The notes beneath the pieces are model-generated. The model was given only the letters and a program-made list of their open reading frames with translations. It had not been told where the DNA came from and made no database searches. The translations under genes and the position numbers were made by a program. Positions 7,143 through 47,952 of a stretch of DNA of 64,000 nt are shown here, piece by piece (position 1 is the first letter of the stretch; the number at the start of each line of letters is the position of its first letter). Where the stretch lies: positions 128,001 to 192,000 of the IMG/VR virus record IMGVR_UViG_3300042997_002652. One strand, 5' to 3'. Origin of the DNA: a virus. Taxonomy: Duplodnaviria; Caudoviricetes.

Positions 7143-9088
7143 AGCAGTTTTTATTACTTGTGTTGTTAGTCGTTTCTTCTATGGCTCACAGTCAAGATTA
7201 CACACCAAACTTAATTGACTATACTGGTTGGGTAAACGCTGGATCAGTAGGAGAACAACTTACGTGCTGGTCTCCTGGTGGTCCTGGATACTGTGGACCA
7301 TTGCCTGCTGTAGGTGCGTTTAATAATCCCAGTTTGATTAATTTTTCGTATGGCTTAACTGACATTTATCAACCCGTTGATATAGCACAAGCATTGAGTG
7401 CTGCTGGTAGTGGCATTATTGTTAACGGGTTTAGCTTTAACTTTATTGCTAAGAATGGTAATGGTTGGGATAACGGGCAACTTGATTACTTAACAGCGTA
7501 TGCAAAGTTTTATAACAATAATAGTTTAGTAGAATCCTACAACTATGATTTAAATTATAGATTCAATTGGACAAACTTCAATTATTCAGAAACTTTTACA
7601 AACCCGTATCAAATAAATGATTTGGATGAGGTGAAAGTTGGATTTGTAGGTAGAGACACAAATGGTTGGGCAGGATTTTATGGGCCCGAAGTAAGGAACA
7701 TTAATTTTAGATTGAATTATGGGATAGATCCTTGTTATGAAGATCCACTGTCATCAACTTCTTGTGCTGGATTTCAAGAAGCATTATTAGAATTACAATG
7801 TAATGGTGATCCATTATCAAGTATAGATTGCCCTGGATACTTGGAAAATTTTATGTCAGAAATTGATATGAATTTAGATGAAGTTTTTGAAGATGAGATG
7901 TATGATGAATATAGTGAAGAAGAACTATACGAAGACTTAGAAGAGGAATTCTTTGAAGATGAATTCATAGCAGATGAAGAATTTTTAGATGATGAAGAAC
8001 TGTTAGATGAGGACTTAATAGCGGATGAAGAATTTTTAGATGAGGACTTATCAGACGGGGAGTCGGTATTGTCGTTGTTGAAATTAATTGGAATACTTAA
8101 CAACACAGACGATGAATCTATTGATTCTTTAAGTCAGTATGATAGTAATACAATTATGGAAAACCAGATTGTTGAAACTATTACCTCAACAAATATTTCA
8201 ATCATTAAAACAGATGATATTGCCGAACCGGTTAAACAAGAAAATATTATAAGAGTTGAAGTTACACAATTAACAGAACAAAGCGTTAGCTCTGATTCAT
8301 TGATTGCAGAAATTGCAGATCAAGATGAAAAGCAAGTAGAAGATATAGAAACCACAGTTGATGACACGCTGATTGTTGACGATAATATAGAAGAAGAACT
8401 AGAAACAATTATTGCTGTTTCACCTTCGAGTAACGTCAGTGAAACAAATATTGAAACACTTCTTTCCGATAACACGGTACAAGAAAATAATACAGAAACA
8501 GTAGTTGCTGCTACCGAACAAGTTAGTGAGGAAGAAGAAACAAGTGTAGGAAATATTGTAGCACAAGAAGAAACAAATAATAATGAAGAAACAACAAATG
8601 ACAGTTTTGATGATATAACATTGATGAGTGAAGTTAGTTTGGATGTTGTAACCACTGCTACTTCTACATTCAATAATAATTCTATGCAACAAGTATTAGC
8701 ATTGGGAGGAACAATAACAGAAATACTGAATACTCCAGTTCCTGATTTTAGTAGATTTGAAATTAAGCCGCCTACACAAGACGAACAAGTACAAACAGCC
8801 AAAGTAGAAAATACGATAGAAACTATGAGTACAGAAGAGATAGAAAGTCAAGCAGAGATAAGAATAGGATCTATGGATCCAGAGTCTCAAGCAATAGCAT
8901 TACAGTTAATAGGATATAAACAAGGATTTGATCAGTATGGCGGAATGCTTGTTGATCAGAGTAATTGGTATTTAGATAGAGGCATGTATACAAACAACCG
9001 TGTACCAGCAGTATCTAGTTCCAATCAAATATTTGGTGCGCAGGATCAAAGACACCAAGAACTAATGTCATTACAATACGGGAGATAA
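7139..9088 (+). CDS. exported protein with Cys motifs and long acidic region
   Basis: Signal peptide; C..DPLSS..C repeated twice; E/D-rich middle; ATGA overlap. Confidence 0.85.
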   Translation: MKQFLLLVLLVVSSMAHSQDYTPNLIDYTGWVNAGSVGEQLTCWSPGGPGYCGPLPAVGAFNNPSLINFSYGLTDIYQPVDIAQALSAAGSGIIVNGFSFNFIAKNGNGWDNGQLDYLTAYAKFYNNNSLVESYNYDLNYRFNWTNFNYSETFTNPYQINDLDEVKVGFVGRDTNGWAGFYGPEVRNINFRLNYGIDPCYEDPLSSTSCAGFQEALLELQCNGDPLSSIDCPGYLENFMSEIDMNLDEVFEDEMYDEYSEEELYEDLEEEFFEDEFIADEEFLDDEELLDEDLIADEEFLDEDLSDGESVLSLLKLIGILNNTDDESIDSLSQYDSNTIMENQIVETITSTNISIIKTDDIAEPVKQENIIRVEVTQLTEQSVSSDSLIAEIADQDEKQVEDIETTVDDTLIVDDNIEEELETIIAVSPSSNVSETNIETLLSDNTVQENNTETVVAATEQVSEEEETSVGNIVAQEETNNNEETTNDSFDDITLMSEVSLDVVTTATSTFNNNSMQQVLALGGTITEILNTPVPDFSRFEIKPPTQDEQVQTAKVENTIETMSTEEIESQAEIRIGSMDPESQAIALQLIGYKQGFDQYGGMLVDQSNWYLDRGMYTNNRVPAVSSSNQIFGAQDQRHQELMSLQYGR

Positions 9089-9093
9089 TAAAC

Positions 9094-9411
9094 ATGGTAA
9101 AAAAATTACAAGACAATTCAGAATATAACCAATATGATGCTGACGGCGACGGAATAGTTTCCGATGAAGAAATTGCTAAAGCAGAACGTTTAGCAGAATT
9201 AGAAAACAAAGACAGAAAAGAAGATCAGTTAAGACAAATGGCTTGGGTAGCTATGGGTTCTATGGTGTTTTTTACTATTGCACTATTCTTACCATTTTTA
9301 AGCGTAGAAAGACTTACTGCGTTAGATAACTTGTTAAGCATGTTTTATATCGCACAAGCAGGTGTAGTAGCAACATTCTTTGGTTCTAGTGCTTATATGT
9401 CAAGAAGCTAA
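9094..9411 (+). CDS. EF-hand-like motif plus two-TM membrane protein
   Basis: YDADGDGIVSDEE followed by two hydrophobic helices. Confidence 0.7.
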   Translation: MVKKLQDNSEYNQYDADGDGIVSDEEIAKAERLAELENKDRKEDQLRQMAWVAMGSMVFFTIALFLPFLSVERLTALDNLLSMFYIAQAGVVATFFGSSAYMSRS

Positions 9412-9431
9412 AATAAAATAGGGGTAAAGTT

Positions 9432-9893
9432 ATGTTGGAAATAGGTATAGCACTCAATATGGCTGTTTCTGCTTTCAATGGTATAAAGAAAGCAGTTGAA
9501 GCAGGAAGAGAGATAGAAGATGTTGCGGGTTATTTTGGCAAATTTTTTGATGCAAAAGAAACCATATCTGAAGCATCACAATATAATGAAAATGCCCCTT
9601 TATTCAAAAAAATATTCGCAGGCAAAAGTGTAGAAGCTCAAGCCTTAGAAATTACTGCAGCCAAACATAAAGCAGCAAAAATAGAAAAAGAGTTGCGCGA
9701 ATTTCTTATCTATTCTGGTCAAGCTCAGTTTTATGAAGATATGCTGAGAGAAAGAAGACATATCAGAGAAGCTAGAATAGAAAAAGCAAGAGCAAATGCT
9801 ATAAGTAAAAAGTTTTGGATTGATGCGTTTTTTATAGGATTTCTTTTAACGACTATTTTTATCCTATTAGGTATGATAATAAGAATAATTTAA
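9432..9893 (+). CDS. coiled-coil protein with C-terminal TM
   Basis: 153 aa, hydrophobic C-terminus. Confidence 0.75.
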   Translation: MLEIGIALNMAVSAFNGIKKAVEAGREIEDVAGYFGKFFDAKETISEASQYNENAPLFKKIFAGKSVEAQALEITAAKHKAAKIEKELREFLIYSGQAQFYEDMLRERRHIREARIEKARANAISKKFWIDAFFIGFLLTTIFILLGMIIRII

Positions 9894-9912
9894 ATTTTGA
9901 GGTAATAACATC

Positions 9913-10437
9913 ATGAGTGATGAAGAAAACAAAACAGCACAAGTAGAATTTGCCGGAATGAGTTTAAGCGGTAGTAAACTGCTATTGTTGATACCTATTT
10001 TAAGTGCATTAGGCGGAGCACTTTGGGGAGGATTTGAAGTGTATCAGCGTTTGTTGGATGCTGAAGAAGCTGTCACAAGTTATATTGCTCCTGATATGTC
10101 AGGCATAGAACAACAGTTAGCAGTACAGCAAACACAAATGAACGAGTTTAAAACAGCCATAGATCAACAGTTTGCTACTACTAATCAATTGTTAGCCGAA
10201 CAACGCACTCAAATAAATGATATCAGACAAAGTATGCGTGATCAAGAATCATTGGTTAGAACTATTGACGAAAATACCGCAACTACCCAGCGTGATTTAA
10301 GAAACGATGTGTATGAAATGGAAAAAGAACTTAATGATAGAGTTAAAGAGTTAGATACTACTTTAAGAACGGTCCGCGAAGATTTAGAAAAGAAAATGCA
10401 GGAAATTTTAGCGAATCCTTTAAATACGGTTGAGTAA
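9913..10437 (+). CDS. N-terminal TM coiled-coil protein
   Basis: TM segment then long heptad-like Q/E/L region. Confidence 0.75.
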   Translation: MSDEENKTAQVEFAGMSLSGSKLLLLIPILSALGGALWGGFEVYQRLLDAEEAVTSYIAPDMSGIEQQLAVQQTQMNEFKTAIDQQFATTNQLLAEQRTQINDIRQSMRDQESLVRTIDENTATTQRDLRNDVYEMEKELNDRVKELDTTLRTVREDLEKKMQEILANPLNTVE

Positions 10438-10493: not shown

Positions 10494-11732
10494 ATGTTTT
10501 TAAAAAACAAACCGTTATCTCGTAGAACATTATTAAAAGGTGCAGGTTTCAGCTTAACACTGCCCATGTTAGATGCTATGATACCTACTGTTACCGCAGC
10601 TCCTATTGCTGATCCTAAGTTAGCTTTCATTTACTTTCCTCACGGTGCTGTAATGAAATATTGGACTCCTCAACAAACAGGTAAAGACTTTGAGTTTTCA
10701 CCCATACTAAAACCATTAGAACCTCTTAGAGACTATGTTACTGTAGTAAGCGGATTGAGAAACAAAGGAGGTGAAAGTTCCAATCCTCATAGTATCATTG
10801 AAGAAACTTGGTTAACTTGTGTAGCACCAGACCAAAGAACAGGTGAACAAGGTTTAAGTGCTGATCAGATTGCAGCTAAGCACTTTACAAATACACCTCT
10901 GAGTTCGTTAGAATTATGCGGCGAACCCGGCGGATCACTTAGCTATCGTTCTAACAATCAAGCATTACCGCTTGAAGGCAATCCCAGAAAGGTATATTAT
11001 ACCATGTTCGGGGAAGGTGACAACTATCAAGATCGCATGAACATTCTAACACAGAAAAATAGCTTGTTAGACTATGTAATGGAGAGTACTAAATCACTAA
11101 ATAAGAAACTGGATAACAACGACAAACTTAAAGTGGAAGAGTATTTGAGCAGTGTACGCGATATTGAAAAGCGCATATCAGGGTTAGAAAGCAGTGCTAG
11201 TGGTCTTACTGATTTACCAGAAGCTCCTATTGGTCCGCCCGACGATTTTGAAGCACTATTAGATATTCAGTATGAAATGATGGCATTAGCATTACAAACA
11301 GGACAAACTCGTATCGTGAGTATGCGCACAGTTAAAGAAGCCAGTATGAGAGTGTTCAGCAACTTGGGCATTGAGGAAGCGTTTCATCCACTTAGCCATC
11401 ATCAAGAAAATGAAGCCAAGTACGAACAATTAGTAAGACTACAGCGTTGGCAAACTGAACGCGCTGCTAAATTTGCTCTTAGACTAAAAGATATGGGTTT
11501 ACTTGACGATACCGTGATCTTATTTGGTTCTAACATGAGCAATTCAGACAGACATAATAACGATCCACTACCGTCAGTGCTAATTGGTCGTGCAGGTGGC
11601 ATTAAAGGTAATCAGCACTTAGCTTATGCTCAAGATACTTCCCATGCTCGTTTGATACACACAATGTTAGAAAAGACTGGTGTACACTTAGATCAGTTTG
11701 CTGATAGTACAGGATCATTATTAGAAGTATAA
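10494..11732 (+). CDS. DUF1552-family protein
   Basis: LSRRTLLKGAG..LPMLDAM, FIYFPHG, FHPLSHH, GSNMSNSDRH..DPLP; start at 10494 by SD. Confidence 0.75.
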   Translation: MFLKNKPLSRRTLLKGAGFSLTLPMLDAMIPTVTAAPIADPKLAFIYFPHGAVMKYWTPQQTGKDFEFSPILKPLEPLRDYVTVVSGLRNKGGESSNPHSIIEETWLTCVAPDQRTGEQGLSADQIAAKHFTNTPLSSLELCGEPGGSLSYRSNNQALPLEGNPRKVYYTMFGEGDNYQDRMNILTQKNSLLDYVMESTKSLNKKLDNNDKLKVEEYLSSVRDIEKRISGLESSASGLTDLPEAPIGPPDDFEALLDIQYEMMALALQTGQTRIVSMRTVKEASMRVFSNLGIEEAFHPLSHHQENEAKYEQLVRLQRWQTERAAKFALRLKDMGLLDDTVILFGSNMSNSDRHNNDPLPSVLIGRAGGIKGNQHLAYAQDTSHARLIHTMLEKTGVHLDQFADSTGSLLEV

Positions 11733-11757
11733 TTTATGGTAAAAAATTAATCAAATC

Positions 11758-11801
11758 TTGACAGGCCTGTCACATAATTTTAACATAGTATTTAATAAAT
11801 A
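11758..11801 (+). promoter_or_regulatory. sigma70-like promoter with palindrome over the -35, plus late box
   Basis: TTGACA-17-TAACAT; palindrome TGACAGGCCTGTCA 11759-11772; TAAATA 11796-11801. Confidence 0.55.
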
Positions 11802-11837
11802 TGTGTGACAAAATTATAACAGTCAAGGATAATATAA

Positions 11838-14063
11838 ATGAATAAACTCAATAAACTTTTCACGGCACTTTTTATAAGTGCCATTTCTTTATCAACCCAG
11901 GCACAACCCTCGCTAGAAGAAATAGTAGTTACAGCTACCAAAAGAGAAACAAACTTAATTGATACACCCATATCAATGTCAGTAGTAAGCTCAAAGAATT
12001 TACAAGAAAGACACGTACAAAGCTTAATGGACTTGGCTGATGGTTCTGTTCCTGGATTAAACATAGCTCCATTTGAATCTAGACAATCTGCTGTTACTAT
12101 TGGTATTAGGGGTATTGTTCCTCTTGATGCTAATCAACCAGCGCGTGAACAAGGAGTAGGTGTTTACATAGATGGAGTATACTTAGGTAGACAACATGGA
12201 TTGAACGCAGCATTGCTAGACTTAGAAAGAATTGAAGTACTAAAAGGACCTCAAGGTACACTCTTTGGTAGAAACACAGAAGGTGGTGCGTTAAGTATGG
12301 TAACAAAAAAACCCACTGGCGAATTTGACTTTAGAATGAATACGGGAGCAGGTAACTATAATAGTAATAATATAGACTTTCATATTAACTTACCTACATT
12401 CTTTAATGTAATGACCAAGATAGATGGGATCACTCAGTATCAAGATGCTACTACTAAAAATCCATTAGCCGGTGAAACTGGTTGGAACTTTTTTGAAAGA
12501 AAGGGATTTAAAATAGCTAACAGATTAGAAACTGATAACTTTACTTTTGATTATTCATATGATGTAAGTATGGATGCGAACAGTCCCTTTTATAGTCAAT
12601 TGCTTAATTACAATCCCATGAATTTGCCAAATGTAACTCCTCTTCCTCCTATGGTAGTTGTAAACGGTTCTAGTATCATGAAAAAAGGTGATATTGGTGT
12701 TCCGCAACAACCTAGCGTAGCTGATGTAGGTGGTCAAAGTTTTAATATTATTTGGGATGTAACAGACAACTTAGAGTTTAGATCAATCACAGCTAAGCGT
12801 TGGGTAGATTCTACACAGTGGGATAATGCTGGCGGTGCTCACAGAATTCCAGTAGCTAAAGCAAACAGTGTATTCAGTAGATATAGTGTTTCTGAACTTC
12901 ATCAAACACAATTTAGTCAAGAGTTTCAGTTAGTAGGAAGCACTGATACTATTGATTACGTAGCTGGTTTATACTACTTTACTGAAGACGCATATGAAGA
13001 AGCAGCCACTCCTTCAACTAATACTTGGAACTTTACTCTAACTGGTTATACTATAAATGATCTTACCCCAACTCAACCAGGTAAAAGATTTATAGATAGA
13101 GGTAGTAGAGCCACTGCTGTTAGTAGCGCAGTGTTTTCACAGGCTACTTATACCCCTATTAATTTTGAAAGACTACATATAACATTAGGCGGAAGATATA
13201 CTAAAGACGATAAATCAGGCGAGTTGTATCTTTTAAGAAATAACCCATCACCGTACTCTTTCATAGAAATTTCTAAAAGATTTAATCCTTTAGCAATCGT
13301 TGCGTTTGATGTTACTGATGGTATCAATGCTTATGTGAAATACGCTACTGGTTATCGTTCTGGTGGTGCTAGTTCACGTTCAGCAACTTATCGCTCATTT
13401 GGACCTGAAGATAATATTTCATATGAGTTAGGTGTAAAAGCGCAATTAGATCGTGCTAGAATTAACTTTGCTGCTTACACGATGGAAAGAACTGGTAGTC
13501 AAGTTGACTTTAGTCAAGTAGTATTTGATCCTGTTTCTAAGTCTTCTAGACACACATTAGAAACTATGAATGCTCCGGGGATTACTGAAATTCAAGGTAT
13601 CGAACTTGATGGAACATTCTTAGTAACTGAAAATTTAGAAGTAACAGCAGCGTATACGTATACAACTACATCAGTACCTGCTACAATTAATCCGTTTAAA
13701 AACTTACCTCAACCAGTGTTTATTGTATATACACCTGAAAATGTTTGGAACTTGGGAGCAAATCATACATTAGCACTTGACAAGTTTACAGTAGAAACAC
13801 ATTTGAGTGCGAATAAGTCTGATCCTTCATATTCATTTTCTGAATTTGATTTACCAAATGACGGATCATTTATCGTAAATGCAAGCGTATCTATAAATAA
13901 CTTTATTAATGCTGAAAGTCTAAGCTTACAATTGTGGGTAAGAAATATGTTAGATGGTCATTTTGTTTTTAGAAGTGATCCATCAAATGACAATGTGTTG
14001 GGTACTTATGGTAACTTTAACGCGCCAAGAACTTTCGGTATCACATTAGGGTACGAAATATAA
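11838..14063 (+). CDS. TonB-dependent outer-membrane receptor, full length
   Basis: Signal peptide, TonB box EEIVVTA, plug DLERIEVLKGPQGTLFGRNTEGGA, barrel-type C-terminus APRTFGITLGYEI; 741 aa. Confidence 0.92.
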   Translation: MNKLNKLFTALFISAISLSTQAQPSLEEIVVTATKRETNLIDTPISMSVVSSKNLQERHVQSLMDLADGSVPGLNIAPFESRQSAVTIGIRGIVPLDANQPAREQGVGVYIDGVYLGRQHGLNAALLDLERIEVLKGPQGTLFGRNTEGGALSMVTKKPTGEFDFRMNTGAGNYNSNNIDFHINLPTFFNVMTKIDGITQYQDATTKNPLAGETGWNFFERKGFKIANRLETDNFTFDYSYDVSMDANSPFYSQLLNYNPMNLPNVTPLPPMVVVNGSSIMKKGDIGVPQQPSVADVGGQSFNIIWDVTDNLEFRSITAKRWVDSTQWDNAGGAHRIPVAKANSVFSRYSVSELHQTQFSQEFQLVGSTDTIDYVAGLYYFTEDAYEEAATPSTNTWNFTLTGYTINDLTPTQPGKRFIDRGSRATAVSSAVFSQATYTPINFERLHITLGGRYTKDDKSGELYLLRNNPSPYSFIEISKRFNPLAIVAFDVTDGINAYVKYATGYRSGGASSRSATYRSFGPEDNISYELGVKAQLDRARINFAAYTMERTGSQVDFSQVVFDPVSKSSRHTLETMNAPGITEIQGIELDGTFLVTENLEVTAAYTYTTTSVPATINPFKNLPQPVFIVYTPENVWNLGANHTLALDKFTVETHLSANKSDPSYSFSEFDLPNDGSFIVNASVSINNFINAESLSLQLWVRNMLDGHFVFRSDPSNDNVLGTYGNFNAPRTFGITLGYEI

Positions 14064-14773
14064 TGTTAAAAGATAAACTAACCATAGTAATACCTTGCAA
14101 AAATGAAGAAAAATATATAGCTCACCTGCTAAATTCATTACATGAGCAAATAGGTATTCATGATGTTAGAATAATTATAGCTGACATATCAACTGATAAT
14201 ACTAGACAAGTTATAGAAGAAAACAAAAAGGACTTAGATGTAGTAGTTATAGAGGGAGGTCCCGTGTCCAAAGCCAAAAACAATGGAGCCGATCTTGTAA
14301 CTACTCCCTATATCTTATTCATAGATAGTGATGTTAGGTTTTTTAATAATTTGGTTATTAGCGACACGATAGCACTATTAGAAAAAGAAAACTTAGATTT
14401 GATTGGGTTAAATATAAAGTGCTATGATAATGATCACGTTGCTAAGGTTAGTTTTAGCATTTTTAATATTGTTAATAAAATAATGTCTAACTTTATACCT
14501 TTTGCAGTTGGTGCGTATATGTTAACTCGTACTGAAAAGTTCTATGAGTTGGGAGGCTTTCCTGAAAAGTATCCTACATCAGAAGATTTTCATTTATCTA
14601 AAAAATATGATGTTAAAAAGTTTAAGATAGCCAATCATTATTTTGGTCAAGATAGTAGAAGATTTAAAAAGATGGGATACTTTGGTATGACTTGGTATTT
14701 GATAAAAAACTTTATTAACAGAAATAATGAATCTTATTGGAAGAACTTAGATGGAAACAAATACTGGTTATAA
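14063..14773 (+). CDS. glycosyltransferase family 2
   Basis: IVIPCKNEE, D..STD, FIDSD, SEDF. Confidence 0.9.
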   Translation: MLKDKLTIVIPCKNEEKYIAHLLNSLHEQIGIHDVRIIIADISTDNTRQVIEENKKDLDVVVIEGGPVSKAKNNGADLVTTPYILFIDSDVRFFNNLVISDTIALLEKENLDLIGLNIKCYDNDHVAKVSFSIFNIVNKIMSNFIPFAVGAYMLTRTEKFYELGGFPEKYPTSEDFHLSKKYDVKKFKIANHYFGQDSRRFKKMGYFGMTWYLIKNFINRNNESYWKNLDGNKYWL

Positions 14774-15488
14774 ATCAGTTTTTATATCAGACTTACACCT
14801 GGGTTCTAAACACTGCAACTCTGAAAAGCTTTTGTCTTTTTTATCAAATCTACAAACAGAAAAATTGTACTTAGTAGGAGATATAATAGACGGTTGGAGA
14901 TTGCAGAAAAAGTGGTATTGGCCTAACAAACATAATATAATACTAAAAAAACTTATCAAGTTATCTAAGACAACCGAAATTATATACATTACCGGTAATC
15001 ATGACGAGTTTCTTAGATCAATACCTGATGTTAAAATAGGTAATGTACCAGTATATAACAGAATAGACCACATAGGTACTGATGGTAAACGATACTTAGT
15101 TACTCATGGTGATATATTTGATCATTTAATGAGAACGCGCAGCGGCAGATTTGTCATGCATTTGGGTGATATAGCATACGATGGTTTAATATATCTTAAC
15201 CGATTGGTAAATGGTGTGAGAAAAATATTTAACAGACCGCCGTGGAGTTTAGCTAAATTTTTAAAAAAGAAAGCAAAAGCGGCTGCTACATACATAGGTG
15301 ACTTTGAACAAGAAATGTCAACGTATTGTAAAAAGAAAGGATACGATGGTGTAATCTGCGGTCACATTCATCATGCGACTATCAAGAATTTTGACGGAGT
15401 AGTTTACATGAATGATGGAGACTGGTGTGAAAGTTGCACTGCTTTAGTTGAAACTAAAGCAGGCACATTTACAATCATCCAATACTGA
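14751..15488 (+). CDS. LpxH-like (UDP-2,3-diacylglucosamine diphosphatase family) metallophosphoesterase
   Basis: SDLHLGS, GDIIDGW, GNHD, THGD, CGHIHH, NDGDW. Confidence 0.8.
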   Translation: METNTGYKSVFISDLHLGSKHCNSEKLLSFLSNLQTEKLYLVGDIIDGWRLQKKWYWPNKHNIILKKLIKLSKTTEIIYITGNHDEFLRSIPDVKIGNVPVYNRIDHIGTDGKRYLVTHGDIFDHLMRTRSGRFVMHLGDIAYDGLIYLNRLVNGVRKIFNRPPWSLAKFLKKKAKAAATYIGDFEQEMSTYCKKKGYDGVICGHIHHATIKNFDGVVYMNDGDWCESCTALVETKAGTFTIIQY

Positions 15489-41039: not shown

Positions 41040-41372
41040 TTAGTTGTTTGATAACAAGGTAACCAGCCCCGTGAAGCTTACGCCGCTAGGCGAATATCTT
41101 CAAGTGCGAACTCATCGTTTGCGTTTACTTTTTTGCTTCTTTAACCGAGAAACTCCCAGTCCTTAAAGGTGTTCTGCGTTCACCTATTCTCCACATACCT
41201 TCAGTTGTTTGGCGAATCCAAATCATCCCCATCAAAAGAGTACTATAAAGAACTACCTAATCCCCTTTCAGTAATTTACCATCGCGGTCAACAGGCGGAA
41301 CGATGTAATACTCTTTTGGTGGAGATGCCGGGGTTCGAACCCGGGTACAAACTTCCTATCTCATGCTTCAAC
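41040..41372 (-). ncRNA. ssrA: circularly permuted (two-piece) tmRNA
   Basis: Acceptor piece (~41372-41317): AAGCATG..., T-arm CCGGG-TTCGAAC-CCCGG, CATCTCC-A-CCA. Intervening segment 41316-41231. Coding piece from GGGGATGATTTGGATTCG (41230), tag ANDEFALEDIRLAA* at 41122-41078. G3:U70 present. Outer ends approximate. Confidence 0.92.
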
Positions 41373-41529
41373 GAATTTCTTTTTTAGCAGCGTCATAAAA
41401 GCTGCTTGATGTTTTAGTATCAGCTTGTTTTATCAAGCATCTACCACAACAACTTCCAATTAGTTTTGCTAACTCAGGTTGTCTTTTGATATCTTGTTCT
41501 CTAATGTTATTACAGATACATAATATCAT
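41368..41529 (-). CDS. Bfd-like (bacterioferritin-associated ferredoxin) small protein (not in ORF track)
   Basis: MILCICNNIREQDI...GSCCGRCL, 53 aa, GGGAG SD, TAAATA at 41553-41548. Confidence 0.7.
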   Translation of the reverse strand: MILCICNNIREQDIKRQPELAKLIGSCCGRCLIKQADTKTSSSFYDAAKKEIR

Positions 41530-42032: not shown

Positions 42033-45000
42033 CTAGTTATCAAATCTAGCTTTTAACCATGCCCATTCGTAGCTTAGTTTTAGTTTGTTAAACTCACCCT
42101 CAACTTCATTATAATAGTCGCTAGCGTCTTTTGCACCTTTCAAACAGTAGTCAGCAAAGTTGCCTTCAGCTTTTGTTAGCCAAGTATCTAAACGCTGCTT
42201 GCTGATTGAGTCAGTAGCGGCTTTTAGTTTTATTACTTCTCTAAACGCAGTACGCCAAGTAGCAAACGCATCAGTGTTAAACATAGCCGTACCTGATATT
42301 TCTTCTACTACTTCGTGTTCATCGTCTAGTGTAAAGTCTAAGCCTTTACCTATATTGTTTAGTACCAATGACTTTTGATAAGCAATCATTGCTTGGTGAC
42401 CATAGACTAAACCATTCACCGGGTTTTCAGCATAAAAGATATAATGCTTAGCAACTTGCATTCTATCGGGTTGCCATGCCCAATCAAACTTGTCATTTAC
42501 TTTTAGCTTGGCGAAAACTGTAAACGCCCATGGAGTGTTACTTGCTTCTAGTGCAGCATGATAAGCTTGTACTCTACCATTTATACCATCTACTCTTACT
42601 ACACGATTAGAAAGTTTGTGAGTTACTTTTAGCAAGTGCTCGTAGTTTTCTTCAGCATCTTGTTCTCCATTGCTCAAGAATACGATATCAATAGGCTTAG
42701 ACTTTGCTATACGATCTACTTTTTTGATATATGGATAATCGTACAACTCTCTTTTTACATACTCTTTGGCTTCTTGAGGCACTATAATTTTTGTAGCACC
42801 TTCGCTAGCAACTATAATTGTTTTAGTTCTAGGTGACCAAAGATTCATTGGTTCATCGTTTAAAGTTTGAATATTTTCATCTGTGCTGCTAATCATTGTT
42901 ACATATGGAAAGTCAAACTCTGTGGGTATAGCAGTTGCATGTGTGTCATCATGAACGATAATAATTGGTTCTAGCAAACGATCAACTCGCATAGTTTGAT
43001 TGAAGTTTATCTTTTCGTAATCTTCTAAACTTGCAATACTTTCTAATTGTAGTTTTGTTTTGTTTACATCTAATAAGAATGTATCACCGAACTTTTGTTT
43101 TTCGCTAGGGAACACATGTAGCTGATCTCGTGCAAAAGGATCACTGATATATGTAAAGTCAAAGTTAGTGTAATCACATACTGAACTGCACAACCAAAGA
43201 TAATGTTCTTTCTTTGTAATCATATTAGTTAACAAGTTTTTAAAAGTTCTTAAATAACTACCGTCGTATTTTATCGTAGTTAAATTAGCTTTTAGTGTTG
43301 TATCTAAATTAGTTTTTAGTGTTGTATCTAAATTAGTTTTTAGTGCTAAAAATTCTGCAACTTGATTAGCTTCTTTATTTCCATGATCTATCAATACAAT
43401 ATCATGTTGACATTGAGTAGCTTTTGCTTTTCTGTCTTTAACAAAGTTTACTATAGAAAGGTGTTCAATGATTTTTACATACTTAGTATCTTCAGGGAAT
43501 GTTTCTTTGTTTACTAAAAACGTAGTACCCCAACGTGACCATTGAGTACCAAACACTGTTAACATTTTCATTTGCCAGGGGTTAGGATAATAATTAAAGT
43601 CAAAGTTTGTGTAATCTAATTCACTGTCTAGAATCCAAAACAATTCTGTAGTAGCTTTGTTTGCACAACGATTGATAGTGTCAACCCAAGAACTTATATA
43701 ACGAACTTTTTGTATCGTAGGGAATCTTTCTTTCAACTGTTCATATTTTGAGGTAGCATTTTGATTGTACCTATCTACAAAAAACATATCAGGCTTTACG
43801 AACAGTTTAGACAATGCTTTTTCATCTAGCCCAGTAGTTTCAATAAACTTTAACTGAGTGTTCCCTCTTATGTATGATTTTGCATTAACAAAATACGTGT
43901 GTGTTAATTCACTGTCCACTGAACCAAATACGCTTACATAAGTTGACTCCCACGATCCGTCTACTAAGTCTGGTCTCCAAGTAAAATCAAAATCTTGATA
44001 ATTAATATTTTTTCTAGTTGCCCAAAATACTTCTGTAGAATGTTGTTTCACTAAATTATCTAATGTAGTTTCTATTTGATATTTTTTTACTTGTATTCCA
44101 ATCTCTAGATACACAATGTCGCCTGTGTTATCAGGTGTGACATATCTAGGACCATCGTTTTTGTCTGCAATACTACCAAACTGGTATATGTACGAAGGTG
44201 AATGAGGATCAGGATGCCAAGTAAAATCAAATGTGTCTTTGTCAAAGTCACTGGGTATTTGCCAATTGTTAAAGTTAGGCATTAATATTGCTTTGATATC
44301 GTCAATATATTTTCTTTCTGTTGCTTCTGAAACATGATATTCTATTGTAGGCATTTTTTCAGCAGAATATTGCTTATTACCAAATACGTAGATATACGGA
44401 GGTTCTTTTGGATCAGGTCTCCACGTAAAGTCAAATTTGTTTTTATTTACTGGATGTATAATTTTCCACTTATCCCATTCAGGAAACAGTTCTACTAACT
44501 CATCCATGAACTTGATTTCAGTAGCTTCAGGTACGCGATATTCAAGTACATGTTTTTCTTCTACTGGAAAGTATTTACAGCCCCACTTATATATGAATGG
44601 GGGTTCTTTTGGATCAGGTCTCCAAGTAAAGTCAAATTTATTTTTATCTACTAGTTCTAGTTCTTTCCACCGATCCCATTCAGGTACTAGCTCAACTAAT
44701 TCATCCATAAATTTAATATCAGTAGCATCAGGTACGTGATATTCAAGTACATGTTTTTCTTCTACTGGAAAATACTTACAACCCCATCGGTATATAAAAG
44801 GAGGTTCAGTAGGCTCAGGATGCCAAGAAAAATCAAAAGTAGACTTATCAATAAGTTCTAATTCTTTCCAACGATCCCATTCCGGTAAAAGTTCAATTAC
44901 TTGATCCATATATTTGATTTGATTAGCCCCAGCGCAGTAGTATTCTACTGTAGGCATCTTTTCAGCAGAGTATTGCTTATTACCAAACACATAAATATAC

Positions 45001-46406
45001 GGAGGGTCTTTTGGATCAGGTCTCCAAGAAAAATCAAAAGTAGATTTATCAATGGAATAATTTATTTTCCAACGATCCCATTCAGGTAATAGTTCAATTA
45101 CTTGATCCATATATTTGATTTCTGTAGCATCAGGTACGCGATATTCTAACACATGCTTTTCTTCTACTGGAAAATACTTACAGCCCCACTTATATATGAA
45201 TGGTGGCTCGTGTAAATCAGGACGCCAAGTAAAATCAAATTTAGTTTTGTCTATTAACTCAATTTCTTTCCATCTATCCCATTGTGATTCTAATTCAACT
45301 ACTTCATCCATGTATTTTACTTCAGTAGCACCTGGTGCATGATATTCAAGTACGTGTCTTTCAAACATAGAATAGTACTTAGAAGCCCACTTATATATAA
45401 ACGGCGGTTCCTTAGGATCGGGGCGCCAAGTAAAGTCAAATTTAGTTTTGTCTATTAATTCAATTTCTTTCCACCGATCCCACTCAGGTACTAGATTAAT
45501 TACTTGATCCATATATTTGATTTCTGTGGCATCAGGTACGTGATACTCAAGTACGTGCTTTTCTTCTACTGGAAAATATTTACAACCCCATTTGTAAATG
45601 AAGGATGGTTCTGTTGGATCAGGACGCCAAGTAAAATCAAAAGTAGACTTGTCAATAAGTTCTAGTTCTTTCCACCGATCCCACTCAGGTAATAGTTCAA
45701 TTACTTGATCCATATATTTTATTTCTGTGGCATCAGGTACATGATATTCAAGTACGTGCTTTTCTTCTACCGGAAAATACTTACAACCCCATTTATATAT
45801 AAACGGCGGTTCAGTGGGATCAGGTCTCCAAGTAAAGTCAAACTTGTTTTTATCTATAAGTTCTAATTCTTTCCATCGTGATTTTTGTTCAACAAGTTCA
45901 ACTAATCTTGTCATAAACTTTACGTCAGTAGCACCCTCTACATGATATTCAATAGTTGATTTTAGTTCTGCTGATACCCACTTGTTACCCCATACATAGA
46001 TATAAGGAGGATCAGTAGGATCAGGGTGCCATGAAAAATCAAACTTTGTTTGATCAATATCGTCTAATACTTTCCAGCACTCAGTAATTTCATTTTTTCT
46101 GTTAACTGGGTCAACATCAGCACGGTATACTGTGTATCCTTTGTGATCTTTAGGACACAACCAAGTTCCTGAATCTTTTTGATGTTGGCTAGGCCAAACA
46201 TTATTATGATCTTGCGCCCATACATCTTCGTCAGGTAAGAACTCAAAGTCCCAATCCCAGTCAAAGTTTTTATAATCACCATATTCGTTGATTATCCAGA
46301 AATGTTCAGTAGTTGCTTGTTGTCTAGCGTCTTCTAATGACTCAGCAAACTTTTCTCTCGGATGAACATTGGGTTTTTTGTTGTAGTAAAATACGTCTCT
46401 AATCAT
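42033..46406 (-). CDS. 1457-aa protein: ten 67-aa repeats plus C-terminal glycosyltransferase-like domain
   Basis: 201-nt periodicity; C-terminus DIVFLSNGE...H..A...NPVNGLVYGH...WRTAFRE resembles 58246-59196; TAAATA at 46417-46412. Confidence 0.85.
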   Translation of the reverse strand: MIRDVFYYNKKPNVHPREKFAESLEDARQQATTEHFWIINEYGDYKNFDWDWDFEFLPDEDVWAQDHNNVWPSQHQKDSGTWLCPKDHKGYTVYRADVDPVNRKNEITECWKVLDDIDQTKFDFSWHPDPTDPPYIYVWGNKWVSAELKSTIEYHVEGATDVKFMTRLVELVEQKSRWKELELIDKNKFDFTWRPDPTEPPFIYKWGCKYFPVEEKHVLEYHVPDATEIKYMDQVIELLPEWDRWKELELIDKSTFDFTWRPDPTEPSFIYKWGCKYFPVEEKHVLEYHVPDATEIKYMDQVINLVPEWDRWKEIELIDKTKFDFTWRPDPKEPPFIYKWASKYYSMFERHVLEYHAPGATEVKYMDEVVELESQWDRWKEIELIDKTKFDFTWRPDLHEPPFIYKWGCKYFPVEEKHVLEYRVPDATEIKYMDQVIELLPEWDRWKINYSIDKSTFDFSWRPDPKDPPYIYVFGNKQYSAEKMPTVEYYCAGANQIKYMDQVIELLPEWDRWKELELIDKSTFDFSWHPEPTEPPFIYRWGCKYFPVEEKHVLEYHVPDATDIKFMDELVELVPEWDRWKELELVDKNKFDFTWRPDPKEPPFIYKWGCKYFPVEEKHVLEYRVPEATEIKFMDELVELFPEWDKWKIIHPVNKNKFDFTWRPDPKEPPYIYVFGNKQYSAEKMPTIEYHVSEATERKYIDDIKAILMPNFNNWQIPSDFDKDTFDFTWHPDPHSPSYIYQFGSIADKNDGPRYVTPDNTGDIVYLEIGIQVKKYQIETTLDNLVKQHSTEVFWATRKNINYQDFDFTWRPDLVDGSWESTYVSVFGSVDSELTHTYFVNAKSYIRGNTQLKFIETTGLDEKALSKLFVKPDMFFVDRYNQNATSKYEQLKERFPTIQKVRYISSWVDTINRCANKATTELFWILDSELDYTNFDFNYYPNPWQMKMLTVFGTQWSRWGTTFLVNKETFPEDTKYVKIIEHLSIVNFVKDRKAKATQCQHDIVLIDHGNKEANQVAEFLALKTNLDTTLKTNLDTTLKANLTTIKYDGSYLRTFKNLLTNMITKKEHYLWLCSSVCDYTNFDFTYISDPFARDQLHVFPSEKQKFGDTFLLDVNKTKLQLESIASLEDYEKINFNQTMRVDRLLEPIIIVHDDTHATAIPTEFDFPYVTMISSTDENIQTLNDEPMNLWSPRTKTIIVASEGATKIIVPQEAKEYVKRELYDYPYIKKVDRIAKSKPIDIVFLSNGEQDAEENYEHLLKVTHKLSNRVVRVDGINGRVQAYHAALEASNTPWAFTVFAKLKVNDKFDWAWQPDRMQVAKHYIFYAENPVNGLVYGHQAMIAYQKSLVLNNIGKGLDFTLDDEHEVVEEISGTAMFNTDAFATWRTAFREVIKLKAATDSISKQRLDTWLTKAEGNFADYCLKGAKDASDYYNEVEGEFNKLKLSYEWAWLKARFDN
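43281..43345. repeat. 24-bp in-frame tandem repeat x~2.7 (LKTNLDTT)
   Basis: Unit TAAATTAG(C/T)TTTTAGTGTTGTATC. Confidence 0.85.
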
Positions 46407-46440: not shown

Positions 46441-47952
46441 TTAATCTTTGGTGTAGACAGGTAAATTATACTTTTGTGAGAAAGCAATAGCGTCTTGTTC
46501 ATCATTTACAATAGGCTGACCTTTGATATTCAAACTAGTGTTTAACAGAATAGGACACCCAGTCTTTTTGTAAAACTCTTTTAACAAAGTATATAAACCA
46601 GGATGCTGTTCGTAGTTAACAGTTTGCACTCTGCTTGTACCGTCTGCGTGTATAATAGCAGGAAACTTAGTGGGCTTTTTGCACTTAGCAACAAACTGCA
46701 TATAAGGTGATACTGTATTGTTGGGCATTTCAAAGTATTCGTGTACAAACTCTTCCATGATAACAGGTGCAAATGGTCTAAACTTTTGTCTATGCTTAAT
46801 AGCGTTTACTCTGTCTTTTATTTCATTGCCTCTTGGATCAGCCATCAAACTACGATTGCCTAACGCTCTAGGTCCAAACTCTGCCTTACCGTTTGCTATA
46901 CCAAATATTTCACCACGCTCTAAACTCTCAAGTGCTTTTTGTATAGGATACTCGCCCTTAATATCATAACCTAAGTAAGGAGTTTGCCAATTAACTTTAT
47001 TACCAGTTCTGTTAAAATGCTCTAGTGCTGCTGCACCAAGAGAACTACCTGCGTCACCTGGGTTTGGCATGATATGAATGTTTTCATACCATCTGAACAA
47101 TTCACTATTTGCTACACAGTTAAGAGCTACACCTCCCATGAAAACTAAATTATTTGAATTAGTAAGTTCTTTAGCATACAGTGCATAAGCCATAATTCTT
47201 TTTTCTACTTCCATTTGTGCTGCTCTAGCAATATCATAATCAGTATACTCAGTGTACATGTCTTTTGATATACCTCTATGTAAGTTCTTTTTCATTTTTA
47301 ATGCTTTTCTAGGATTATGAAAAGGTTCAGGGTAGCTAAAGAAATCATGTGACATTTTGTAGCTGAGGAAAGTAGCGGCATCCTTAGAGCCATAAGCAGC
47401 CATGCCCATAAGAATGTACTCATCTTCCATTGGCTTTAAGCCAACTCTGTGTGTCATAGCACTGTAGAATAAGCCAAGACTACTAGGGTACTTTACGCTA
47501 TGCTTTTTAGTAAGCTTATTATCTTTCCAATGCCATATCGTAGCAGTATCAAATTCGCCTATGGCATCTATAACCATAATGGCACATTCATCAAAGTCAC
47601 TAGTTAACACGCCTGCTGCCGCATGTGTTTCATGATGCCAATATTCTTTTATAGGTATTCCTGCTAATTGAGGATAAAATTGTTCAATCCATTCTTTCGT
47701 ACTAGGTTCTTTTAGAGCTTGCCACGAGCCTGCCCTTATATGTCTTAGCTTTTTGAAAAAGTTCTTTTCGTGTAAAACAATTTGATCGGGCTTGCCGAAC
47801 GCAAGTGCTGCATTAATGATTTCTTGATTCAAGAAACAATCATTTTTTATTTTACTGTATCGTTCGCTGTGTGCGGCAAAGACGATGTTACCGTCTTGTA
47901 ACACAGTAACCGCAGCATCATGAAACCCTGCACTAATTCCTAAAATAATCAT
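46441..47952 (-). CDS. carbamoyltransferase (CmcH/NodU family)
   Basis: HDAA, HH..HAA, DAIGE, GGVALN, AEFGPRALGNRS, FRPFAP, NTSLN. Confidence 0.95.
   Translation of the reverse strand: MIILGISAGFHDAAVTVLQDGNIVFAAHSERYSKIKNDCFLNQEIINAALAFGKPDQIVLHEKNFFKKLRHIRAGSWQALKEPSTKEWIEQFYPQLAGIPIKEYWHHETHAAAGVLTSDFDECAIMVIDAIGEFDTATIWHWKDNKLTKKHSVKYPSSLGLFYSAMTHRVGLKPMEDEYILMGMAAYGSKDAATFLSYKMSHDFFSYPEPFHNPRKALKMKKNLHRGISKDMYTEYTDYDIARAAQMEVEKRIMAYALYAKELTNSNNLVFMGGVALNCVANSELFRWYENIHIMPNPGDAGSSLGAAALEHFNRTGNKVNWQTPYLGYDIKGEYPIQKALESLERGEIFGIANGKAEFGPRALGNRSLMADPRGNEIKDRVNAIKHRQKFRPFAPVIMEEFVHEYFEMPNNTVSPYMQFVAKCKKPTKFPAIIHADGTSRVQTVNYEQHPGLYTLLKEFYKKTGCPILLNTSLNIKGQPIVNDEQDAIAFSQKYNLPVYTKD

Follow-up and report, generated by a model that had tools for sequence, protein, structure and literature searches.

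An intact TonB-dependent receptor gene maintained in a T4-like jumbo phage, with a possible role in phosphorus scavenging

Why should a bacteriophage carry a complete gene for an outer-membrane transporter, and what would such a transporter bring into the infected cell? The question is raised by a TonB-dependent receptor (TBDR) gene located in a 64,000-nucleotide (nt) stretch of viral DNA (the window), taken from a virus record of 266,967 bp (IMGVR_UViG_3300042997_002652, bases 128001-192000). An earlier note on this DNA had described the gene as an intact, phage-encoded TBDR with AT-rich codons like those of the surrounding phage genes, and had proposed that it serves either as an auxiliary nutrient importer or in superinfection exclusion. 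We conclude with high confidence that the gene encodes a functional receptor maintained by the phage, and the interpretation that we favour, on balance, is that the phage uses it as an auxiliary importer linked to the scavenging of phosphorus. The coordinates of all features are given in Table 1, and the labels L002, L003, etc. denote the loci of relatives, i.e. viral contigs, with the exception of L038, which is a contig of a bacterial metagenome-assembled genome (MAG).

The encoded protein is complete, and all of the parts listed in the earlier description of this 741-residue receptor (signal peptide, TonB box, plug and barrel) were recognized. The Sec signal peptide (MNKLNKLFTALFISAISLSTQA, cleaved before QP), assessed by eye, consists of a basic n-region and a hydrophobic core followed by a cleavage site of the A-x-A type, and its layout is identical in 24 of 24 phage copies of the receptor. 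Within the TonB box, residues V31, T32 and A33 are invariant in an alignment of 12 sequences, and in an alignment of 37 sequences A33 is invariant and V31 nearly so. The plug domain (PF07715) was detected over the full model with an E value of 7.9e-18 (65.4 bits, cut-off 23.9). The Pfam barrel domain PF00593 scores below the threshold in the window copy, and it is present in the precomputed annotation of relatives sharing 92-93% identity. The AlphaFold2 (AF2) model, built on 37 relatives (predicted local distance difference test, pLDDT, 77.5; predicted template-modelling score, pTM, 0.79), is a plug-filled barrel with about 22 long strands from residue 164 onward. Foldseek matched this model to FyuA (4epa), FhuA (1by3) and FoxA (6i97), whose plug-in-barrel fold it is predicted to share, with E values of 1e-33 to 1e-35 and a template-modelling (TM) score of about 0.73 over more than 700 columns. 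Because the identity to these three proteins is only 15-19%, their substrates are uninformative here, and a sequence search of solved structures returned plug-level homology only, without a clue to the substrate. NCBIfam models of siderophore and haem TBDR subfamilies match the protein over its full length with scores below their cut-offs, and it therefore belongs to no curated subtype. More than 130 alignment columns are invariant over the phage and bacterial copies, and all of them are kept in the window TBDR.

Two traits distinguish the copy of the window and its close relatives. The protein terminates with FGITLGYEI, and thus the YEI ending noted earlier in place of the usual F is real; its last residue is hydrophobic and non-aromatic. 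A final I or M characterizes the window's clade, and the other phage copies end in F, except those of L018, L019 and L025 (M, L and L, respectively). Since 11 of 82 bacterial family members end in L or M, a non-aromatic C-terminus is probably a tolerated, minor variation. The second trait is the absence of an 11-residue segment (e.g., VGPFSGSLPSG), probably a surface loop, which is missing in the window's clade and in some other phage copies, and present in the bacterial copies and in the phage clade that carries the gene between gp45 and gp44.

The residence of the gene in a phage genome is well documented. It lies approximately 140 kb into the 267-kb T4-like record, and its left flank is composed of open reading frames (ORFs) known from phages only (phrog_20531 and phrog_27150), while UvsX, gp32, the large terminase (TerL) and a virion protein are encoded on its right flank. 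A host-derived transport gene thus resides in a true phage genome and is bordered by viral genes on its left and right, the arrangement that defines an auxiliary gene. The TBDR was also found, at 88-97% identity, on four viral contigs from other samples, and in one of the relatives, the 43-kb contig L003, the whole gene order is kept (424-aa ORF, TBDR, glycosyltransferase, phosphoesterase, UvsX, gp32, TerL). The junctions around the gene are therefore repeated in independent contigs from other samples. The codon usage is phage-like, as the earlier note had stated: the GC content at third codon positions (GC3) of the TBDR gene is 21%, compared with 23-30% in UvsX, gp32, TerL and other phage genes, and 79% in the nearest bacterial relative, L038. 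Pairwise ratios of nonsynonymous to synonymous substitution rates (dN/dS) are 0.05-0.08 among the copies of the window's clade, which rules out decay, and 0.05-0.18 over ten phage-phage comparisons. The gene is under purifying selection and is maintained in phages.

In IMG/VR the record is classified as a 'provirus'. This label is probably wrong, because no integrase was found in a search of the 267-kb record. The phage looks lytic. Scans of bacterial homologues revealed no TBDR with more than 59% identity, and no near-identical bacterial flank was found at the locus. Among the GenBank phages collected in INPHARED, a megablast search with an 8.5-kb region gave no match, and tblastn with the TBDR protein gave weak (at most 37%) or partial matches only, mostly to doubtful 'phage' records; the gene thus has no cultured phage relative.

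From which bacteria does the receptor originate? A single-protein scan of genome contigs gave no match and an alignment-based scan was needed, which yielded 512 matches in species-representative genomes. Of these 512, the best 80 come almost exclusively from Alphaproteobacteria (Caulobacter, Brevundimonas, Sphingomonas, Novosphingobium, Allosphingosinicella and Rhodospirillaceae), and the identity of the TBDR to its alphaproteobacterial orthologues is 50-59% over the full length. Each of three Caulobacteraceae genomes contains one clear orthologue (56-59% identity), and one of them carries an additional paralogue at 49%, whereas the remaining TBDRs of these genomes share at most 41%, mostly in partial alignments. 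On this pattern of identities, the family is a discrete alphaproteobacterial orthologous group. The phage copy resembles these orthologues in its signal peptide, TonB box, plug and invariant positions, and differs from them in GC3 (21% vs. about 79%), in the missing loop segment, in ending in I rather than F, and in being placed in a cassette assembled in the phage. Relatives of the TBDR carry the label 'iron complex outermembrane receptor protein' in the source database (JGI), and PHROGs holds an unannotated TBDR-like family (phrog_5687).

An alignment-based scan of viral contigs identified 23 loci, whose gene neighbourhoods place the TBDR on at least three different phage backbones: (i) the jumbo T4-like clade of the window, including a relative at 77-78% identity on contigs of 82-159 kb, (ii) a second T4-like clade, in which the gene lies between those of the gp45 clamp and the gp44 loader, and (iii) an HK97-type phage with a T5-like small terminase, portal and S78 protease. 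On further contigs the gene is located beside ribonucleotide reductase (RNR) and ligase genes, or beside gp46 and a helicase. The earlier note had proposed a phylogeny against bacterial TBDRs and a search for a phage clade, and such a clade was recovered. In the maximum-likelihood tree of 107 sequences, with support from the Shimodaira-Hasegawa-like approximate likelihood ratio test (SH-aLRT), 15 phage copies from all three backbones, together with the bacterial L038, form clade A with a support of 100, and the sisters of this clade are uncultured lake Alphaproteobacteria. A second phage clade of eight copies is nested in Novosphingobium, and the copy of the 333-kb viral contig L027 stands apart. 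A single origin of all phage copies was rejected by the approximately unbiased (AU) test (delta lnL 603, p 2e-8). The tree positions and this test indicate that the gene was captured by phages at least twice. Within clade A, either the gene was transferred between unrelated phages or closely related, unsampled hosts donated it repeatedly.

Two of the loci deserve separate mention. The bacterial TBDR of L038 (669-2987; contig GC content 62.6%) adjoins genes of a resistance-nodulation-division (RND) efflux system and nests in the otherwise phage-only clade A; it is thus either the nearest relative of the donor sampled so far or the product of a return transfer from phage to bacterium. In L027, the independently acquired TBDR (7271-10322) directly follows a full-length ClpP protease gene.

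What, then, might the transporter import? A first indication comes from the regions upstream of the bacterial orthologues. The Pho box, with the consensus CTGTCAT-N4-CTGTCAT, is established from work on E. coli and rhizobia. Sites were scored as matches to this consensus out of 14 positions within 250 nt upstream of each orthologue. Sites with at least 11/14 matches precede 23 of 72 bacterial orthologues, and 11 of the orthologues have sites with at least 12/14, compared with 0.8 (maximum 3) and 0.1, respectively, expected from dinucleotide shuffles. Among 429 other long ORFs of the same loci, 2.6% and 0.7% reach these respective thresholds. The bacterial sites come from at least eight genera. 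As the orthologous group very often carries a Pho box of the PhoB-binding type, the most likely substrate would be a phosphorus compound or one needed under phosphate starvation. In Caulobacter, various TonB-dependent receptors are controlled by PhoB (PMC11208175).

A matrix derived from the bacterial Pho boxes was also applied to the upstream regions of the phage copies, with significant matches in separate lineages, namely in the window (p=0.003), L015 (p=0.007), L028 (p=0.003) and L003 (p=0.02). In the window, the site on the minus strand, 16 nt ahead of the start codon, is the top match to this matrix in the entire 64 kb (15.2 bits; p=0.003 relative to shuffled versions of the upstream region). 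The gene neighbourhoods add a further link. In L013, a member of the second T4-like lineage, the gene next to the TBDR encodes a true PstS (NF008171; 408 bits, cut-off 339), and in Rhodospirillaceae the orthologue is followed by genes for a CYTH-CHAD protein, a PitA-like PHO4 transporter and PhoU_div. PHO4/PhoU genes recur in 7 loci, and CYTH-CHAD genes in 6. When ORFs located up to 5 kb from 83 bacterial orthologues were clustered, no partner predominated; the naive ORF calls in high-GC DNA were noisy. Neither the pstS-carrying L013 nor its relative L006 contains a Pho box of at least 11/14 anywhere in the locus.

The elements of the intergenic region that precedes the TBDR gene are conserved in L002 and L003. 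The perfect palindrome TGACAGGCCTGTCA is nearly conserved in L003 as TTACAGGCCTGTCA, and it could be the operator of a dimeric regulator. The upstream box claimed in the earlier note is present as AATAAATA, with TATAAATA in the corresponding alignment position of L002 and L003. The latter motif is not enriched across the window (7 found vs. 11 expected), and for this reason no claim is made that AATAAATA or TATAAATA represents a T4 late promoter.

The genes on both sides of the TBDR were considered as well. Directly upstream lies a DUF1552 gene; translation probably starts at M19 of the ORF as listed, and the twin-arginine translocation (Tat) motif is visible. This gene is a variable accessory, absent from the syntenic L003 and present in two copies in L012/L017. 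The AF2 model of its product is of moderate quality (pLDDT 68), and the top 50 PDB matches listed by Foldseek all belong to the alkaline-phosphatase superfamily (sulfatases, phosphonate monoester hydrolases and LtaS), with a weak TM score of about 0.4. On the basis of this model, the protein is a candidate periplasmic, Tat-exported hydrolase of the alkaline-phosphatase/sulfatase superfamily. Bacterial DUF1552 proteins are paired with a PSCyt/PSD protein, a partner that the phage lacks, and the nearest bacterial relatives (approximately 68% identity) occur in Gammaproteobacteria and Hyphomicrobiales, i.e. the source differs from that of the TBDR.

Downstream, the TBDR stop codon and the ATG of a family-2 glycosyltransferase (GT2) gene share nucleotides (TAATG), an arrangement suggestive of translational coupling of the two genes. 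The GT2 gene is in turn overlapped by 23 nt by a gene for a calcineurin-type metallophosphoesterase with sub-threshold matches to LpxH-like NCBIfam models, and both genes are conserved downstream of the TBDR in L002-L005. In phosphate-starved marine bacteria, the phospholipase PlcP and a glycosyltransferase constitute a Pho-regulated lipid-remodelling pair, located behind Pho boxes, which swaps phospholipids for glycolipids and thereby frees phosphate (PMC4796936). The phage locus is similar to this operon in that an LpxH-like metallophosphoesterase gene adjoins a glycosyltransferase gene, and differs from it in the order TBDR, glycosyltransferase, PlcP-like phosphoesterase. Judging by the loci compared, the TBDR cassette was assembled in the phage, because no bacterial orthologue carries it. 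None of the PADLOC defence models matched it.

Metagenomes contain very many homologues of the phosphoesterase at 85-89% identity, on contigs of up to 273 kb, and on this account it may be a widespread phage gene in its own right.

Table 1. Position and support of the features of the TBDR locus and of the tmRNA gene within the window.
Feature	Position	Strand	Details
DUF1552 (HXXSHH) gene with twin-arginine leader SRRTLLKG	10494..11732	+	Pfam PF07586, E 5.6e-76
Intergenic region of the TBDR gene	11733..11837	+	105 bp
Sigma-70-promoter-like TTGACA-17-TAACAT	11758-11786	+	promoter scan
Perfect palindrome TGACAGGCCTGTCA	11759-11772		overlaps the -35-like TTGACA
Pho-box-like site CTGTCAC-ATAA-TTTTAAC	11767-11784	+	9/14 positions, at -71
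Upstream box AATAAATA	11794-11801	+	9 nt downstream of the plus-strand Pho-box-like site
Pho-box-like site CTGTTAT-AATT-TTGTCAC	11805-11822	-	11/14 positions, at -33
Ribosome-binding site (RBS) AAGGA	11825-11829	+	
TBDR (transporter) gene	11838..14063	+	741 aa, ATG start; stop 14061-14063
TBDR signal peptide	aa 1-22 (11838-11903)	+	MNKLNKLFTALFISAISLSTQA, followed by QP
TBDR TonB box	aa 27-34 (11916-11939)	+	EEIVVTAT
TBDR plug	aa 40-151 (11955-12290)	+	Pfam PF07715
TBDR beta-barrel	aa ~160-741 (12315-14060)	+	AF2 model, Foldseek
Missing 11-residue segment	between TBDR residues ~265 and 266		alignment A1 columns 287-297
Family-2 glycosyltransferase (GT2) gene	14063..14773	+	Pfam PF00535, E 7e-19
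LpxH-like/PlcP-like calcineurin-type metallophosphoesterase gene	14751..15488	+	Pfam PF00149/PF12850
Permuted (two-piece) transfer-messenger RNA (tmRNA)	41078-41377	-	Rfam RF04321, 78.9 bits vs. gathering threshold 47

From these features we infer how the gene would be used. The uncultured T4-like jumbo phage would express, in the infected cell, a complete TonB-dependent outer-membrane transporter, whose pre-protein would be exported through Sec of the host; periplasmic chaperones and the host beta-barrel assembly machinery (BAM) would then insert it into the outer membrane. The transporter would have to be energized by TonB-ExbBD of the host, since TonB (TonB_C) and ExbB homologues, as well as PstS homologues, were not found in searches of the phage record. 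It would add import capacity during phage replication and so raise the uptake of a phosphorus source, and its cassette partners, GT2 and the PlcP-like phosphoesterase, would free phosphate from lipids. The likely pay-off, and with it the benefit to phage fitness, would be phosphorus for the 267-kb DNA genome, which fits both the coupled TBDR-GT2-PlcP-like cassette and the candidate Tat-exported hydrolase of the alkaline-phosphatase superfamily encoded directly upstream. A more far-reaching version, which we put forward tentatively and consider rather doubtful, is that the TBDR represents a phage-adapted, PhoB-controlled importer lineage shared by freshwater phages of several unrelated types, and that in this phage it forms part of a three-part phosphorus-scavenging island read by the phosphate sensor of the host. 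The candidate parts of such an island would be the Tat-exported hydrolase, the TonB-dependent importer and the glycolipid-swap pair (GT2 and the PlcP-like phosphoesterase).

Several observations weigh against the link with phosphorus. The best Pho-box-like site of the window is reversed and lies between the promoter-like elements and the RBS, an unusual spot for the site of an activator, and the site on the plus strand matches the consensus in only 9 of 14 positions. The bacterial Pho-box counts (23 of 72 orthologues) are phylogenetically non-independent, with 10 of the 23 sites in the opposite orientation. No Pho box was found in the phage lineages L006, L013, L017, L022 and L025, and phosphate-related neighbours occur in only 2 of approximately 8 phage contexts examined. 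The OmpR-type two-component pair frequently encoded near bacterial orthologues is not PhoBR according to NCBIfam. The label PlcP-like is based on similarity, and the very many close homologues of the phosphoesterase are labelled LpxH (JGI); furthermore, a search of the bacterial loci placed the DUF1552, GT2 and PlcP-like proteins of the window beside no bacterial orthologue. The solved structures nearest to the TBDR (15-19% identity) are siderophore transporters, and its relatives are annotated as iron complex receptors.

The last of these points leads to the most serious competitor, namely an auxiliary importer for a non-phosphorus substrate (iron chelate, haem, vitamin or sugar), which would supply another limiting nutrient or cofactor. 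Besides the annotation of the relatives, it can draw on the best structural matches, which are siderophore or metal-chelate transporters (FyuA, FhuA, FoxA and FptA), on the sub-cut-off matches to siderophore and haem subfamilies in NCBIfam, on the lack of an adjoining phosphate gene in most phage copies, and on the only published phage TBDR found in our literature search, which was read as a carbohydrate importer (PMC9723777). At such low identity, however, the matches to siderophore transporters reflect the common TBDR fold only, and against a non-phosphorus substrate stand the 12- to 30-fold enrichment of Pho boxes upstream of the orthologues and the neighbourhood of pstS, PitA/PhoU, CYTH-CHAD and PlcP-like genes. 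We consider this explanation unlikely, at a probability that is still appreciable, and prefer the phosphorus-linked importer. The earlier proposal of an auxiliary nutrient importer is thus retained and narrowed to the phosphate-starvation type, and nothing was found in support of its companion, exclusion by TonB titration or receptor swapping.

According to the exclusion hypothesis, the phage receptor would displace or mask a receptor of the host, or titrate the limited TonB against competitors, thereby remodelling the cell surface. Phages and colicins classically use TBDRs as receptors, and the supply of TonB in cells is limiting. Phage-encoded outer-membrane proteins that alter phage sensitivity exist, e.g., T5 Llp acting on FhuA (PDB 8a60, which is among the Foldseek matches) and the Lc porin of phage PA-2. 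The shortened surface loop and the non-aromatic C-terminus of the window's clade, as compared with the bacterial copies, would also be in keeping with such a function. However, the TonB box, the plug and the more than 130 invariant positions are under strong purifying selection, as expected of a working transporter and not of a decoy, the cassette matches no PADLOC defence family, the partner genes are metabolic, and the TBDR has no sequence relationship to Llp or porins. With no integrase and an apparently lytic life style, there would also be little time for a pay-off, and we therefore judge exclusion improbable. Far less probable still is an artefact, i.e. mis-assembled host DNA (the chimera that the earlier note had named as the finding that would undo its claim), host sequence flanking a provirus, or a passenger gene in decay. 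The 'provirus' class in IMG/VR and the typically cellular nature of the TBDR, DUF1552 and GT2 genes might be taken to indicate one. However, the gene lies deep in the record between phage genes, with junctions repeated in other samples, its composition is phage-like, no near-identical bacterial flank and no integrase were found, the best bacterial identity is at most 59%, and the low dN/dS (0.05-0.08) reveals purifying selection.

One further feature of the window concerns the host. Permuted tmRNAs occur typically in Alphaproteobacteria, in some Betaproteobacteria and in cyanobacteria, and the permuted tmRNA of the phage, with the tag peptide ANDEFALEDIRLAA predicted by ARAGORN, may hint at its host. 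Together with the alphaproteobacterial relatives of the receptor, it fits the TBDR-rich Gram-negative host postulated in the earlier note. The window also encodes a NolO-like carbamoyltransferase (46441-47952, minus strand; phrog_1601, E 4e-111), adjoined by a 1457-aa ORF (42033-46406, minus strand) with almost no family matches.

Among known systems, the closest parallel is provided by the pstS and phoA genes of T4-like cyanophages, which are expressed under the control of the host PhoBR system. The occurrence of pstS in T4-like cyanophages is documented (PMC3037559). As in those phages, a host-derived gene that would serve phosphate acquisition is preceded by a Pho-box-like sequence, and in L013 the TBDR gene adjoins pstS itself; unlike PstS and PhoA, the TBDR would act at the outer membrane and not in the periplasm, and its hosts would be heterotrophic Gram-negative bacteria. 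A TBDR is also encoded in the large genome of the marine megaphage Mar_Mega_1, where it was read as an auxiliary gene that boosts uptake (PMC9723777). That receptor differs in being of the SusC type, in a Bacteroidota-like setting, and was mentioned in passing as a carbohydrate importer, without an analysis of its clade, selection or regulation, whereas the TBDR described here belongs to a different, alphaproteobacterial family. Our literature search found no paper describing the TBDR clade, its spread over phage types or a link with phosphate, and TonB is not mentioned in a survey of phosphorus acquisition by soil phages. Nutrient-acquisition genes of phages are known; an outer-membrane version with a predicted link to phosphate appears to be new here.

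Phage pstS and phoA are the textbook case of nutrient reprogramming, which acts only after the outer membrane has been crossed. If the interpretation proposed here is true, phage control over phosphorus would extend beyond the periplasmic PstS to the first step of uptake, to heterotrophic lake bacteria and to membrane lipids. The presence of the receptor on at least three phage backbones, following at least two independent captures, shows that it has been selected for repeatedly. The phage copies may also provide a handle on an uncharacterised, widespread alphaproteobacterial transporter family, for which the Pho boxes, pstS and polyphosphate-related neighbours suggest candidate substrates.

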